Positions 51,133 to 59,296 of a stretch of DNA of 64,000 nucleotides are shown here, one piece after another. A program made the position numbers and the translations under genes. Source of the DNA: Phyllosticta citribraziliensis (lineage: Eukaryota); NCBI RefSeq assembly GCF_038025025.1, contig NW_027117346.1:248001-312000 (forward strand), read 5' to 3'. Positions within the stretch are counted from its first letter, which is position 1. Every line of letters starts with the position of its first letter. The notes below the pieces were generated by a model that had not been told where the DNA came from, did no database searches, and worked only from the letters and a program-made list of their open reading frames with translations.

Positions 51133-52365
51133 GTCTTGCAAGCGTGGGACGAGAATTTGTCGCAGCTGCAGGAGCGGCGTGAATTGCTTGCATGCTGCAG
51201 GTGAAGTTCTTGGCAGGTGTCAAAGCCAACGCCAGCCGAAGCATGAAGAGCCATAAAACACGGCTCACGGCGTGGGTCAACGTCAGGGATAGACGCTTTG
51301 CCGGCTTCCCCAAAAGTGTTTTGCGGTCGAGTATCAGAAACCACCCACGAACCACCCACGAAACGCACTCTCTTTCGCCGTCTACTCGAGATACCAACCA
51401 GAAACAGAAACGACACGCCAAGTCGAGCACGAAAGCAAAAGAAAACGGAGACAGACCAAAACCAATCACCGCTCACCCATCCCCTCATCCATCCATCCAA
51501 TCCCCTCTCACGGTCTCAGTCCCTGTATCGCCACACCAAAACACCAAGAGAGAACCAAGCCAAAAAGAAAAACATCACGAGGAACGAATGACAAGATAGA
51601 AAAGGACACGACAGGAAAAGAAAAGAAATGAACATTTTTGCTCTCTACCTATTGCCTAGCTGCCAAGCTCCGCCTCGTGATTCTCCCAAGAGTGCTGAAG
51701 TCGAGACAAGAAAAACAAGCGTAAGGTGGTAGGTGGGTGGAGCGCTGCCTGAGCTGCGTCGAGATGATGCGTTTCTGGCCACCTACCTCTGCGGGCCAAG
51801 ACGTCAGGGCAGGCAAGTACCGTACGTGCACGTCGTTTTGGCCTCCTCCTGTCTTGTCACGGTCTTGCTTCGTTGCCTGTGGCTATGGTCGTGCCGGTCG
51901 GTCATCTCGGATGCCAGCCGTCTTATGAGTCGCCCCTAACGCTTGCCTCCTGAATCGATATGGGCGTGTATGTACACCTCTCCTCGCTCCCCGCTTCCCG
52001 CACCCCGTCACTATCCGTCCCCGTCCCCGTGATCGTCTGAGGTCAGAACAGAGATGAGCGATGCCTGCCTCTCTGCAGCCCGCCGTGTCCTACCGCCACC
52101 GCGCGCCGCCACCGGGCAGCAGGTGGCGGCCTTGTACAACAACATAGCATAGTACAGTGCATCGCCCTCCCCGCGTCTTACTGCCGGCCGCTCCGACAAC
52201 TCTGTTCTAACGGTTCCACGCAGATCAGCACGAGAGAGGAATCACGCGGCGGGCTGGCCGGCGTGGACGCGCTGGTGCAGCTCGACAACAGCGCGCCACC
52301 GTCCCGTCTCGCCTCGCCTCTCGTCGTCCCGTTTGGCTAGCTAGGGCGTTGCGGGAAAGGGGGGC

Positions 52366-53472
52366 CTACCCCTTGACGAAAGAGATGAAGCTGTACGCCG
52401 TCTTGTCCGTTGGGAGACCGTCCCACAACTCCACAGGCATTGATAACAAGAGAAGTACTGAGTCAGACTCCATCGAACTGACGACCCTGATTGAGACGTT
52501 GCGCAGGTCCGGTGGAAGGTTTGTCGTGAGCCACTTGGTGAACTGTTCAGAGTCTGGCAAAGACTTCTCTCCGACAAGGCTCACTGAGATCAGTACGCGG
52601 TACTCTGATTCCCCGAGATCCAGAATAGCCTTTTTCCGGTCTTCCACCGTCAAAGTCCTGTGATTACGAGAACGATCCTGCTTCCCGAGAACCACACTTT
52701 CCTTGTCCTTCTCCAAGAGGTGCACCGGGGTTCGCAGGAGACCGTTTTGTGAGCGAGCACGAGTCAGCTCGGCGAAAATTTGCGCAACTGATTTCGGGGC
52801 GCCGTTGAGATCTTCGAGTAGTCGAGCGAGGACATTGGTGAAACTGTTCTCCAGGCTATCGCTCGCAGTGTCTGAAGGGGTGAAACCAGCGGCTCCAAGA
52901 AGCTCTGGCCCGTTGTGATAGTCGGCTGCAATCGCACTGCAGCAATCAAAGATGTGGAGATATCGTCCCTTCCTGGACCTGGCGTTTGTGCCGAATTCGC
53001 TCCATTGCGCCCAGGGCTCGATGATATGATCATTTTCGTCAGTCTGTGCAGCCCAATAAAAATCTCGGTAATTATTGCTGACTGCTGCATGACCCGAATA
53101 GACAAAAATGAGTAACGAATCGTTTTGAGCGTATCGTTCGCAAAATTGAAGAAACTTGGCCTTCAGAAATTGCTCCGGAGAGTCGTTTTCCGCCGGAATT
53201 TGGATTGTTTTACACGTGAAATTGTAAACATTAGAAAAGACATTCATCATGTTGGCTTCTGCAGTGCGACATCCCATAGTGTCACTCTCCCACGTCACTC
53301 CCAAAACTGCAACACTTCCATAAGGCGTGGAGCGTGTGGGGAACACCCTCGCCATGGCCGCCTCGACGTCCTTTACGAACTCTTGTCTCGAGGCCAAGTG
53401 GCCTCTCCGAGTGTTTGCAGAGACTGGCTTCGTAGAGTGGCCATGCAAGATTTGATCCGGCGTGGCAGGCAT
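52366..53472 (-). CDS. Caspase/metacaspase-like (peptidase C14 / caspase-hemoglobinase fold) protein, copy 1, His/Cys dyad intact
   Basis: 368-aa ORF: VAVLGVTW, LLIFVYSGHA, LHIFDCC, ELLGAAG..SFT..L, plus a conserved ~90-aa C-terminal domain. A further 3' exon is possible (GTAGGC at the stop). Confidence 0.8.
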   Translation of the reverse strand: MPATPDQILHGHSTKPVSANTRRGHLASRQEFVKDVEAAMARVFPTRSTPYGSVAVLGVTWESDTMGCRTAEANMMNVFSNVYNFTCKTIQIPAENDSPEQFLKAKFLQFCERYAQNDSLLIFVYSGHAAVSNNYRDFYWAAQTDENDHIIEPWAQWSEFGTNARSRKGRYLHIFDCCSAIAADYHNGPELLGAAGFTPSDTASDSLENSFTNVLARLLEDLNGAPKSVAQIFAELTRARSQNGLLRTPVHLLEKDKESVVLGKQDRSRNHRTLTVEDRKKAILDLGESEYRVLISVSLVGEKSLPDSEQFTKWLTTNLPPDLRNVSIRVVSSMESDSVLLLLSMPVELWDGLPTDKTAYSFISFVKG

Positions 53473-54160
53473 GTTGGCGAATAGCTCTTCCTAAATAACA
53501 GTCAGTAAGTGGAATGCCAATCGAACGTTCGGGATACCAAAGATGCTTACGGACAGGATTCTTGATCAGCGAGGTCTTGATGAGTGAGCCGTTCAAGAGG
53601 TCTTGGGTGTCCCAGGTTGGAAAGCCGTTGGTTGGCAGAGTGGTGGAGGGAGTTGCTGAATTTATATCACGCCTGCCGAACTTGACAAACGGAACCATGG
53701 ATGGAAACAAAAGGCTACCAGCCAAACTTCTAGCAGGCGCAACAAGGATTTGTCCGACTACAGTACCCTATCATCGTTTGCCAGCCCAACAAATTCTGTC
53801 GTCGTGTTTCTCAGCGATTCCACTCTCCTTTTCGCTCCTCTCTTCGCCCATGATCTTCGTTCGTCCGTTTTACGACCAACAAGATATTGCCTGATTCTTC
53901 TAGCCTCCAGCCGACTCAAACCATCGTGAGATGAGGAAACAGCCTTCTGGGAATGCCGCTGATCTCGTTTGCTACACGGGTTGTCGACACCAATCTCGTC
54001 CGCTTTCTAGCAATCATTTCTCAGCAAGCCTAAGGTCCGGGAAGGTGTCGTCGGGATTTTCGTGGAATTGCGGACTACCTGCCACCAGTTCTATCATGGG
54101 TTTGGGTTGGGGTTGCGGCACACCGGCGGGCTGCAGACAGGTAGTGGGTAGTATGTAGCC

Positions 54161-55282
54161 TTACATACTATCCTTGACGAAAGAGACAAAGCTGTACGCT
54201 GTCTTGTCAGTCGGAAGACAATCCCAGACTTCCAGGGGCATCGTGAGAAGCAAGATGATGGAATCAGCCTCCTTGGCCGTGGCAAGTCGAATGGACAGGT
54301 ATCTCAAGTCCGGTGGGAGATTTGTCGTCAACCACTGCTTCCAGCTCTCAGCATCCGGAAGCGCCGTTGGGCCGGAGAGGTTTACCGAGATCATTACTTT
54401 GTGGTCAGACTGGTTCATGGTCTCAATGCCCTTGGCTCGGTCTCCATCCGTGAGATTCAGGTGCTTTTGCGTCCGTCTGGAGAGCCTACCGAGTACGATG
54501 CTGTCCATGCCCTGCTGAAGTAGGTGAACCGGGGTTCGCTGAAGACCGGTCTCGATACGGGAGCGTACCATGTCGCTGTAAATTTGGGAAATCGACCGTG
54601 GTTTTCCGTCGAGCTTTTCCAGTTGCCTTGCTAAGATGTTGGTGAAATTGAAGTTGTAACTGGATGACGATACCATGTCGAGGCGGTGGAATCCCGAAGC
54701 ACCGAAGAACTCCGGCCCATTATCAAACCCTGCTGCAATGGCGGCACAGCAATCGAAAAGGAAAAGGTAGCGACCGCCCTTCACAGGCTCAACAAGGCCT
54801 TGGATGGACCTCCACGAAATTTGTGGCCAGCCCAGCCCCCGGTATCCTAAGCGCTCGTCGGCTCGCCCACACCAGACCATGTCCGTGTAATCTGGACTGA
54901 TTGCCGCATGGCCAGAGTACACGAGTATCATGAGAGACTCGTCCGAGTCCCACTCCGCGCGGAATGTGAAGAGCTTCTCTTGCAGGACTCCGAGGCAGTG
55001 TGGGGCTGTGTCTGAAGGCAGGACGAGAGATTCGCAGTGGAAGCCGTACGTGCTGCGCAAAACTTGCAACAAGTTCTCCTCGGCGTCCTCGCACCCCGTC
55101 AAGTCATTGTCCCAGCGAACAGCTAGGACAGCAACTTTCTTGAAAGGCGTGCTATTGGCCGGGATAGCCTTGTTCACGGCTCTCTCAATGTCTTTCAGTA
55201 GCTCTGCTCCGCTGACATGGCCTCGCTCCTCGGTGTGCGCACTCGACTTCGTGGAATGGGTTTGCGAGCCTTGATAGGACAT
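54161..55282 (-). CDS. Caspase/metacaspase-like protein, copy 2, His/Cys dyad intact
   Basis: 373-aa ORF: VAVLAVRW, LMILVYSGHA, LFLFDCC; colinear with copy 1 (WLTTNLPPDLR, PTDKTAYSF). A further 3' exon is possible (GTATGT just before the stop). Confidence 0.8.
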   Translation of the reverse strand: MSYQGSQTHSTKSSAHTEERGHVSGAELLKDIERAVNKAIPANSTPFKKVAVLAVRWDNDLTGCEDAEENLLQVLRSTYGFHCESLVLPSDTAPHCLGVLQEKLFTFRAEWDSDESLMILVYSGHAAISPDYTDMVWCGRADERLGYRGLGWPQISWRSIQGLVEPVKGGRYLFLFDCCAAIAAGFDNGPEFFGASGFHRLDMVSSSSYNFNFTNILARQLEKLDGKPRSISQIYSDMVRSRIETGLQRTPVHLLQQGMDSIVLGRLSRRTQKHLNLTDGDRAKGIETMNQSDHKVMISVNLSGPTALPDAESWKQWLTTNLPPDLRYLSIRLATAKEADSIILLLTMPLEVWDCLPTDKTAYSFVSFVKDSM

Positions 55283-56265
55283 GCTGTATGCTCCTTGAAC
55301 ACTGGTCAGTCGCGGAATCCCAGGGACTTTAGTGAGTTAAAGACTTTTACGCGCGGTGGTCGTATTGGCAATATTTTGATCAGGAAATGGCGCTATTTCA
55401 ATCAAAAAGTAGTACTATTGCAATCCAGAATTCAAGTGAAGTAAAATGAGAAGACAAAATTCTCGAACCAGTTGAAAAATTCCAGAGCACAGTACCATGG
55501 ACTGCAAACAAAATCGGGAGCTCAACAGAATCTACTACCATGGTAGTCATCTAGCTTGAATGCTCCCCATTCGGTTCGGGTAAAGCTATGTATGACTCCA
55601 TCTTCGTCTTGTTCATTTGTTTCCGTGCTGAGCTTGTCGTCAAGTGGCATCAAAGCGCTAATCCGCGAGGTCTCCGTTCCATTGGCGTTCCTTTCGCGTG
55701 CGAATGCTCCTCTTGCCTACGCGCGCCGCTCCGTCCGTCCATGCCGCGCCATCGCACGTGTCACGCCCACCCAAACCCAACTTACCTTACCCAACGCAGG
55801 AACTTGTCGGCTGGGTGTTTTAGAGTGGTGCGGTGCCTGAGCCGGGTGTTTGAGCACGCGAGCGACCACGCGAGGGGGCGGGTCGGGTCGGGCAGAGGCA
55901 CGGCGGCGCGAGCGGGAGGGTTAGGGGTGTGGTCAGGGGTAGGGAGGGTGAGTGGAGAGGTTGACAGGGGTGGTGTGGTCGGTGAAGGACGCTAGTGCGT
56001 CGGCGGCCCTGGGCTAGGTCGTGGACTAGGTAGGTAGGTAGGGCGGGAGGTAGGAAGGTGAGGTAGGTGGGTTGCGTCCAGATTTAGAGTATGTGTACGT
56101 GGATGTCGTGATGGGATGAGGGGATGATGGCGCGAGAAGGACAGGCAAGTGGGTGAGTGGTAGCAGGTATGAGCGGCCATTTACCAGCGCAGGCCACTGT
56201 CACCCCCCAACACCACCCCAGGTGCGTGAAGAGGCCAGAGAGGCAGACGGCATCAGTCCCCATCC

Positions 56266-57729
56266 CTAACCCCCACATCCTCCCCCTCCTCTGCCAGGGA
56301 GGTATCCTCCTCTCACGCCACCTCTTCCACGCATCTCCCTCCAAAGCTTCAAGTTGCGCCTTCGCGCGGGCTCCACGCCCTCAAACAGAGGCATCTCGCG
56401 CTTCAAGCGGAAACTCCTGCGCGGCCGCGGCGCAGCGGCGATGCCCACTTGTTTGGCCCAGACAGACGGCTGGGGGCGGTGATCTTGCATGTGGGAGAGG
56501 AAAGTGTACATCCTTTTGCCATAGATTGGGAATTCCTGCCACAGCTCGAGCGGAATGGACGCGATGAGGAGAGCGGTGCCGTCATTGATGTCGTCGTCAG
56601 CGGCGGTGGGAAGCTGCACCGACTCAACGCGCACCGAGTGCGGTTGGTTGAGCGGCAAGTGTGCCGTCAGCCAATCTTGCCAGTCATTAACTCCATCGAT
56701 CCAGCGGTCGCAGGCGAGACGGATGGAGAAGAGGACGCGGAGACTCTGCCGGTCCATAGCGGCAAGCGCCTCTCTGCGGCTCTCAAGTGTGAGCGAATGC
56801 TTCTGCGGCTGGCGCGCGAGGAGGGTGCTCGGCACGAATTCTTTATCAAAAGACTCTCCTCGGACTTCGTGAACGGGGACGCCGCCGAGGCCCTTCTGGA
56901 CGCGTTTGTGGGTCACTTCGCCGTGGATCTGGACGACGGAGCGGACCTCTCCATTCAGGCCCTCGAGGTGGTCTGCGAGGCTGTAGATGTACTCGTGCGG
57001 CGGCGACAGATTGGGCGACGCATCGCCGTAGGAGCTTTTGGGGCAAGACAGGGACTCGGCCAAGACATACGATTCGCCCTCGTCGACCCAAAAGCAGTCG
57101 AAAATGCGGAGGACGCGCGGGTAGTTTTGCATCGCGCCAGAATAGAAGCCGCCGTACTCGGCGAGCCTGGTGCCGTCGAGCTCGAGACCCATACTTGCAC
57201 GTTGGCTGTCCCTCGTAGTGAGCGGGTTTAGCTGCCAAGAGTAACGGCCCCGATGCAAGGCCGTCCCCCTTTCTTTGAACGCGGCAAAAGACGAGTACCC
57301 GACGTACACGATGATGGACAGCGAGTCATCCTTCTTGCAACGGTCGTGAAACTCGATCAGCGCGTTCCTGAACACATTCATCGAGGCCAGCGGGTCTCCT
57401 TCGTTGACCGCGATGACGAGCGACTCGCACGCAAAGTTGTACGTGTCGCGGAAGACGCCGAGGAGCCTCTGTTCAGCCAATTTGGCGTCCGCATCGTCGT
57501 TCTCCCAGGTGATGCCCAGGACCGTGACGCGTTGCAAGGGCGGCTCGTGGATGGGCAGGGCGCGCTCGACGGCGATTTTGAAGTCTTTGGCAAACTCCCG
57601 CGCCGACTCGAGGCGGTGTCTTGAGGGAGAGTGCAGTGGGCGAGGGAATCGCCGAGCTGGATGGCCCAAACCGCCGCAGCGGCAGCGGGGCCTTCGCTCT
57701 GAGCGGTAGTCTTCGCACGCTATGCACAT
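56266..57729 (-). CDS. Divergent caspase-like paralog, copy 3, catalytic positions substituted (putative pseudo-protease)
   Basis: 487-aa ORF: VTVLGITW, VFRDTYNFACESL, LSIIVYVGYS, LRIFDCF, LRVLFSIRL..WQDWLTAHLP..IPLELW..YTFLS. Confidence 0.75.
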   Translation of the reverse strand: MCIACEDYRSERRPRCRCGGLGHPARRFPRPLHSPSRHRLESAREFAKDFKIAVERALPIHEPPLQRVTVLGITWENDDADAKLAEQRLLGVFRDTYNFACESLVIAVNEGDPLASMNVFRNALIEFHDRCKKDDSLSIIVYVGYSSFAAFKERGTALHRGRYSWQLNPLTTRDSQRASMGLELDGTRLAEYGGFYSGAMQNYPRVLRIFDCFWVDEGESYVLAESLSCPKSSYGDASPNLSPPHEYIYSLADHLEGLNGEVRSVVQIHGEVTHKRVQKGLGGVPVHEVRGESFDKEFVPSTLLARQPQKHSLTLESRREALAAMDRQSLRVLFSIRLACDRWIDGVNDWQDWLTAHLPLNQPHSVRVESVQLPTAADDDINDGTALLIASIPLELWQEFPIYGKRMYTFLSHMQDHRPQPSVWAKQVGIAAAPRPRRSFRLKREMPLFEGVEPARRRNLKLWREMRGRGGVRGGYLPGRGGGGCGG

Positions 57730-58861: not shown

Positions 58862-59296
58862 CTAGTGCTTGGTCTTCAAGACGTACTTGCCGTCCTTTGC
58901 ACCATGCTTCTCGTTTTCGACAATGGCAGCCATGACAAGCCGCATGGCCTCCGACTCAGGCTTGGAGTCGACATTGCCGGGCATGTCAATGGTCCACTTG
59001 CCTCCGTGTTTGCTCGATTCAGCGGGGGCGTCATCGGTGCTCTTGGATTTTGGCGTGTCCATGGGGTCCTGTGAAGATCAGCTCACAATTGACTAATTGG
59101 GTTGTTCGGTGCGGGAACGAGTGCCGGCAGATGAAGGCAAGTCGGCACACAGCTAGTGACTTACCGAGATGGCGGGCGCGGCCTTGCCCTTCTTGCCATG
59201 CGACGGGTGTGATGGGACTTCGGCAGTGAGGCGGCCTCCCTTGGAGGAAGCCATCATCTCCGAGGGATTCGGATCGTGAGACTGGGGAGGAGCCAT
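58862..59296 (-). CDS. Small hydrophilic orphan protein (112 aa), 2 exons
   Basis: ATG 59296 in CACC context. Exon 59165-59296, intron 59069-59164 (GTAAGT..GCTGAT..CAG) and exon 58862-59068 join in frame (..AAPAIS|DPMDTPK..). Confidence 0.6.

Follow-up and report, generated by a model that had tools for sequence, protein, structure and literature searches.

A tandem expansion of a large ascomycete caspase-fold family in Phyllosticta, with a retained, predicted pseudo-protease

Introduction

Research on fungal cell death has centred on Yca1-type metacaspases and, recently, on gasdermin-cleaving proteases of the CHAT and S8 types. In metacaspases, an Asp-rich loop after the catalytic His forms the calcium site, and extra strands block dimerisation. 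In animals, inactive paralogs regulate active ones, as cFLIP does caspase-8. Type I metacaspases carry a Pro-rich N-terminal prodomain, according to the accessible part of PMC13304501, and the accessible part of PMC5372324 records two genes induced in Sclerotinia infection, one for a caspase-domain protease and one named “tyrosine phosphatase non-receptor”.

Bacteria provide further described systems. One bacterial EACC1-associated caspase cuts EACC1 into a pore (Evans 2025, bioRxiv 10.1101/2025.11.14.688446); fungi are unmentioned in the accessible portion of that preprint. Another layout, CASPASE+TRADD-N(+variable), is represented by seven proteins in the available part of Kaur 2021 (PMC8195603), where the defining traits of TRADD-N are its RRM-like fold, its tiny-Ser motif in the turn between beta2 and beta3, and its seat between the constant and variable parts of proteins. 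The searched supplements of the same paper list no fungal TRADD-N.

The locus and its genes

The window, a stretch of 64,000 nucleotides from Phyllosticta citribraziliensis, contains three minus-strand open reading frames without internal stops that are colinear across a caspase region and a C-terminal domain. All three are annotated as proteins in public records, and they lie between the genes for RNase H1 (RNH1, upstream) and the plasma-membrane H+-ATPase (PMA1, downstream).

52366..53472, minus strand: copy 1, caspase-fold protease with C-terminal domain, 368 aa, His128/Cys178 intact; protein call in NCBI/UniRef
54161..55282, minus strand: copy 2, caspase-fold protease with C-terminal domain, 373 aa, His125/Cys179 intact
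56266..57729, minus strand: copy 3, pseudo-protease, 487 aa, with Tyr145/Phe213 at the dyad positions
58862-59296, minus strand: small spliced gene between copy 3 and PMA1, without a Pfam match

The positions and the alignment bear out the first-pass annotation's description of three same-strand paralogs sharing a caspase-fold region and a C-terminal domain. Its placement of the triplet between RNH1 and PMA1 is right for both flanks and is corrected in one respect: the small spliced gene separates copy 3 from PMA1. In amino acids, copy 1 shares 47% identity with copy 2 and 29% with copy 3. At the DNA level only brief segments of copies 1 and 2 are alike (72-75%), so the duplications are old, and no RIP signature was found at the locus.

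Among named organisms, the closest relatives belong to Phyllosticta; the source is a leaf-dwelling fungus. A P. citribraziliensis gene model from the same cluster joins copy 2 and copy 1 into a 779-aa protein, probably an annotation merge since a stop follows copy 2 in the window. Compared with one other annotation, copy 1 is identical and copy 2 differs at six residues, all within 256-307; at five of the six, the other allele has the P. citrichinensis residue. Copy 3 has records on two contigs. Selection, gene conversion and error are indistinguishable as sources of these differences from one comparison.

The catalytic dyad and the caspase fold

The first-pass annotation had read YSGHA and FDCC in copies 1 and 2, and YVGYS and FDCF in copy 3, and had taken the dyad to be the His of GH and the Cys of D-x-C. 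Both readings proved correct: the codons were located, and the His-Gly and D-x-C of copies 1 and 2 fall in sequence register with those of AtMC4 and Yca1. Copies 1 and 2 are predicted from sequence to be active proteases without tails. Copy 3 has Tyr145 and Phe213 in place of the dyad.

A structural search for the caspase fold, which that annotation had suggested as a check against Peptidase_C14/CHAT, did find it. Foldseek-type searches with the predicted structures of the copies returned the caspase fold, with MALT1 as the top Foldseek match, and by predicted fold the window proteins belong to clan CD, the caspase-hemoglobinase (C14-like) group. The results for whole models were taken up entirely by the caspase domain. 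Pfam gave a caspase match for none of the three window proteins, all of which stay below the PF00656 gathering threshold, and yielded one weak unrelated match (E 0.034); a single-sequence PDB search gave no match.

A large fungal family with variable tails

A six-sequence profile run against 1.84 billion representatives matched 2,257 clusters at E<=0.001, and family members were drawn from the best 150 of these. The Atlas assigns the family to Ascomycota, with top Atlas scores of 0.96 and PF00656 on 28-60% of members. Both His and Cys are present in 113 of the 126 rows with both catalytic columns filled, among 153 aligned proteins of which the other 27 are fragments or gapped. The only NCBIfam protease model to match, caspase_w_EACC1, does so at E<=0.01 in 57 of 107 members (best E 3.9e-12), and Pfam C14 (PF00656) matches 42 of the 107 at a looser E<=0.05. 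In prokaryotic genomes only two weak p20 matches were found, and none in plasmids. A search of the full-text literature, with subscription journals mostly outside its scope, found no description of this large and apparently uncharacterised fungal caspase-fold family.

The constant unit of the family is a caspase domain followed by a small alpha/beta domain, with variable tails in other fungi. More than 150 aa extend beyond the C-terminal domain in 37 of the 134 members having that domain. Among 65 relatives picked mainly by length, Pfam identified fusions to a homeodomain (7, six of them with rhodanese), TPR (4), HET (2), ankyrin (2) and Tle1-like domains (2), and to PHD, C2 and aspartyl protease domains (1 each). 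At 18 metagenome loci, TPR (3), HET (3) and DUF7580 (1) occur inside or directly after the family frame, and C2H2/SH3 and fungal transcription-factor tails were also seen among the family frames scanned.

The metagenome loci were found by active-site patterns, and the best 80 of 224 confirmed loci were examined; 34 of the 80 are at least 10 kb long and several are redundant. Within the retrieved DNA, 79 of the 80 hold one module and one holds two. This exception (L035) comprises an active module, a stop-free repeat linker and a module with Cys replaced by Val, in one open frame. The module is likewise repeated in 3 of 146 protein matches, and two contigs each carry a pair of members (L064 and L073, L065 and L072) separated by about 14.7 kb. 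The triplet is a Phyllosticta-level expansion of a huge family rather than a free-standing protease/decoy module as in the first-pass annotation, and since nearly all other loci hold a single module within the retrieved DNA, a dead partner is not needed in general.

Neighbouring genes, sampled as 87 long frames at 18 loci, are mostly housekeeping; a NACHT gene, a HET gene and an ankyrin-plus-kinase pair occurred once each, and no dedicated effector recurs among them. These neighbours would suit the doubtful alternative that the family consists of ordinary regulatory proteases of development or stress, for example ones that free fused transcription-factor domains, with the triplet a product of birth-and-death turnover. 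The homeodomain, rhodanese, PHD, C2H2 and fungal transcription-factor fusions would fit such a role, as would the low allelic diversity in P. capitalensis, where alleles differ by only 1-5 residues, unlike typical het genes. However, the HET, TPR, ankyrin, Tle1-like and DUF7580 partners, together with the constant/variable layout, resemble the conflict systems of Kaur et al., and the paralogs diverge rapidly, with 29-47% identity within one locus.

The C-terminal domain

The second constant element is best followed in copy 2.

54170..54448, minus strand: residues 279-371 of copy 2, the conserved C-terminal domain, whose likeness to TRADD-N is no more than a lead

Its predicted element order is a helix followed by beta-alpha-beta-beta-alpha-beta. 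Three residues are strongly conserved across the family, Ser341 (97/107), Pro349 (105/105) and Trp353 (102/106). Ser341 is placed in the beta2-beta3 turn, after a column that is mainly N, D, S or G, as in the tiny-Ser motif of TRADD-N. The Ser-to-Pro spacing (S-x7-P) usually matches, by eye, in the first 43 of the 128 published TRADD-N alignment rows. In a profile comparison with two Bacteroidota TRADD-N domains, these two sequences being the whole sample, Ser and Pro fall in register with a local E of 0.12, and the global score is not significant, as it was equalled by 38 of 100 shuffles.

Further searches yielded little. PF20694 in Bacteroidota genomes gave 0/2, 0/401, 2/401 over the cut-off, 1/45 and 1/11; a two-row TRADD-N profile recovered only its own source in 401 genomes, and a protein search returned only its own query. 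Pfam TRADD-like_N had no match in the family, including 35 isolated C-terminal domains, and the C-terminal domain alone came back blank against the Atlas, the PDB (as a profile) and Pfam, from which neither novelty nor absence follows. The TRADD-N likeness is thus a lead, suggested by predicted topology and conserved residues.

Transcripts across the locus

Two runs from two studies, X1 and X2, contain splice joints in RNH1 and PMA1 and are presumed to be RNA. A 2,685-nt RNA-derived contig (55420-58104), which is neutral as to strand, spans copy 3 and its flanks. The 3' two-thirds of copy 1 is covered by contigs from both studies, and since their GT..AG joints lie on the plus strand, a spliced RNA antisense to copy 1 exists. 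Upstream of copies 1 and 2, putative 5'UTR introns can be recognised from sequence motifs.

52455..52506, plus strand: antisense intron over copy 1 (run X1; GT..AG, branch-like motif)
53038..53101, plus strand: second antisense intron, overlapping copy 1's catalytic His codon (run X2)
53491..53550, minus strand: putative 5'UTR intron upstream of copy 1, with canonical donor, branch and acceptor motifs, from sequence only
~55302-55350, minus strand: similar putative 5'UTR intron upstream of copy 2, from sequence motifs, its splicing absent from the RNA

The antisense RNA is continuous with RNH1 in X1 and ends at 53214 in X2 and at ~53216 in X1, the latter judged from the length of the assembled contig. 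It may damp copy 1, or it may be ordinary read-through. A coding role was considered and rejected, as the part overlapping copy 1 has no Met-started frame of at least 50 codons. Contig depth cannot rank genes, so the low RNA cover of copy 2 and of the 5' part of copy 1 carries no evidential weight.

Copy 3 and the dead clade

A quick IQ-TREE maximum-likelihood run, on 62 hand-picked rows biased to the query's relatives, placed three dead copies in one clade (SH-aLRT 100) within a clade of all 13 Phyllosticta proteins (98), with copy 3 on a long branch. The P. capitalensis orthologue is 41% identical to copy 3 (104/254 over the caspase fold, 44/97 over the C-terminal domain) and retains both the Tyr and the Phe replacements; a second dead copy in that species has Tyr and Pro at the dyad positions. 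In each of 6 annotations, the orthologue's accession comes directly after those of two His-bearing paralogs; the second dead copy follows 5-7 accessions beyond the orthologue. This numbering, rather than DNA, suggests that His-bearing and dead copies adjoin in P. capitalensis as well. In P. citrichinensis, the copy 2 orthologue adjoins a model with the C-terminal part of copy 3. The His-bearing neighbours in P. capitalensis appear damaged: P0035 is truncated at 314 aa and P0011 reads D-C-P, yet the two dead copies persist. A damaged-looking paralog of P. citriasiana (P0084) is truncated and reads D-C-F. Such apparent damage to His-bearing paralogs in other species speaks against copy 3 being a simple decoy.

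Three appendages set the dead clade apart.

57661..57729, minus strand: N-terminal Cys-rich motif CxxC...CxC...H; an MCxxC start occurs in 3/153 family proteins, all dead copies
56404..56421, minus strand: basic RRSxRL motif, residues 437-442, in 4/153 proteins (the three dead copies and P0122)
56269..56328, minus strand: RGG-rich tail, pLDDT below 50; at least two RGG in 4/153 proteins (the three dead copies and P0157)

Motifs of the Cys-rich, RRSxRL and RGG types can bind chromatin or RNA, and the Cys-rich motif is possibly a metal-binding knuckle. To judge from its sequence, copy 3 became a pseudo-enzyme long ago, was retained and has gained new motifs. The first-pass annotation's view of it as an intact pseudo-protease beside active-looking copies was upheld by the open frame, the dead clade and the replacements kept in P. 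capitalensis.

It is very improbable that copy 3 is a functionless relic yet to decay. The loss of both catalytic residues and the long branch would be expected of one, but its frame is open, identical substitutions are kept across species at 41% identity, the new motifs are conserved in three copies, and the gene has RNA cover.

A more serious, though still unlikely, alternative is that copy 3 left the protease pathway and is now an independent, neofunctionalised nuclear or RNA-binding scaffold, adjacent to the others only through tandem origin. The clade-specific CxxC, RRSxRL and RGG features would suit such a scaffold, as would the copy's own RNA contig and the contrast between dead copies, which remain intact and in P. 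capitalensis number two, and active paralogs, which are decaying in several species. Nevertheless, copy 3 retains the whole caspase fold and the C-terminal domain, adjacency is maintained across species, and a separate active-plus-dead fusion exists (L035). Being early-dead yet retained, and having gained new tails, copy 3 suggests a part in the control of copies 1 and 2.

A possible switch with a dead partner

The explanation we favour, tentatively and with somewhat less than even confidence, is that the triplet is a Phyllosticta-specific tandem expansion of ascomycete caspase-fold proteases in which copy 3 serves as a non-catalytic partner in a conflict or death switch. The family would serve conflict or regulated-death signalling as a switch that works by proteolysis. 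In other fungi its variable tails would act as sensors or effectors, and here copies 1 and 2 would be active proteases without tails. Copy 3 would heterodimerise with them through the caspase fold and use its Cys-rich, basic and RGG appendages to set their activity or their location, conceivably by nuclear or RNA-linked sensing; these appendages exceed the needs of a plain cFLIP-like decoy. Such a partnership, and a role in death or defence, are plausible. The data suit general signalling too, because homeodomain fusions (7/65) exceed those to HET and because C2H2/SH3 and transcription-factor tails occur.

It is also conceivable, if rather improbable as a whole, that the family represents a second, large and undescribed caspase lineage of filamentous ascomycetes, distinct from Yca1 and CHAT, built from a caspase, a TRADD-N-like switch and a variable part and tuned by independent dead paralogs, with the Phyllosticta dead copy a nuclear or RNA-sensing regulator. 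Were this so, the family would mirror the bacterial caspase-TRADD-N and EACC1 conflict systems, its C-terminal domain would be the first of TRADD-N-like type in fungi, and the caspase-8/cFLIP pair would have a fungal counterpart. The locus, comprising two predicted enzymes without tails and one naturally dead candidate partner, is the smallest test set.

Comparison with known systems

The first-pass annotation had set the triplet apart from the Yca1-type metacaspase, and the distinction stands. The family's profile match to Yca1 is weak (E 0.019). Unlike type I metacaspases, with their long Pro/Gln prodomain, copies 1 and 2 have ~40 residues before the fold. The family lacks the Asp-rich loop that follows the catalytic His, with at most 3 Asp in 89 of 91 compared to 6 in Yca1. 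In 78 of the 80 rows that could be measured, the distance from Cys to beta5 is 11-21 residues, a short linker relative to metacaspases. The family also has the extra C-terminal domain, unlike Yca1-type metacaspases. The short spacing and the top Foldseek match to MALT1 fit a compact, six-stranded, dimer-capable, paracaspase-like core. In contrast to MALT1 and to caspase-8/cFLIP, the fungal family has no death, DED or Ig domains.

Fungal CHAT proteases encoded beside gasdermins also belong to clan CD, often carry TPR and sit in death clusters, according to the accessible part of Clave 2022 (PMC8851545). Cyanobacterial pseudo-orthocaspases, in the available part of PMC6426788, likewise show a His-to-Tyr change in a retained dead caspase homolog; their Cys has become Ser, whereas that of the Phyllosticta dead copies has become Phe or Pro, and the tree gives the latter an independent origin inside Phyllosticta.

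Bacterial EACC1-associated caspases (NF047832) share with the family a constant N-terminal caspase and variable C-terminal domains, as far as the accessible part of PMC7159879 describes them. Against the 140-bit cut-off of NF047832, copy 1 scores 14.5 bits, copies 2 and 3 give no match, and the best relative listed scores 44.6. No EACC1 partner gene was found in the window or among the 87 long frames of 18 loci, a screen that short spliced genes escape. The likeness to EACC1 caspases is one of model matches and domain layout. Finally, the bacterial CASPASE+TRADD-N proteins have the same domain order as the fungal family; the fungal C-terminal domain differs in having no Pfam TRADD-like_N match or significant profile similarity, but the predicted RRM-like strand order, the Ser turn, the S-x7-P spacing and the position of the junction are alike.

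Transcription and variation at the triplet

Copy 1 is overlain by a spliced antisense RNA (window 52366-53216, plus strand) that is present in two studies and, in one of them, is joined to the RNH1 contig. The catalytic His codon of copy 1 sits under one intron of this plus-strand RNA. A 40-nt stretch at window 52246-52285 is also matched, with long loose ends, by contigs from another locus in both RNA runs, which suggests that it is a short repeat or motif found elsewhere in the genome.

Two annotations of copy 2 differ at six amino acids, grouped within 52 residues (window 54362-54517, minus strand) around the junction between the caspase and C-terminal domains, whereas the same kind of comparison gave zero amino-acid differences for copy 1.

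Another gene lies between copy 3 and PMA1:

Window 58862-59296, minus strand: small two-exon gene, ~113 aa

Its splicing is visible in both RNA runs, and a Pfam search with its second exon returned no match.

Related architectures

A metagenome locus from other fungi, L035, carries a doubled form of the family:

L035:1606-5066: two caspase-plus-C-terminal-domain modules, single reading frame

The second module has Val in place of Cys, and the linker between modules contains imperfect repeats of ~20 aa each. In P. capitalensis, family members P0016 and P0031, both His/Cys-intact and with consecutive accessions, are a second tandem pair at another locus. A further subfamily (P0111, P0112, P0124, P0129, P0138 and P0139) unites caspase, homeodomain and rhodanese domains in a single chain, and could possibly represent a transcription factor set free by a protease.

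Finally, TRADD-N occurs in two multidomain proteins of Bacteroidota:

L094:1024-2214: TIR, TRADD-N and Mur ligase C-terminal domain
L093:1102-2331: EAD11, TRADD-N, receiver and LuxR HTH
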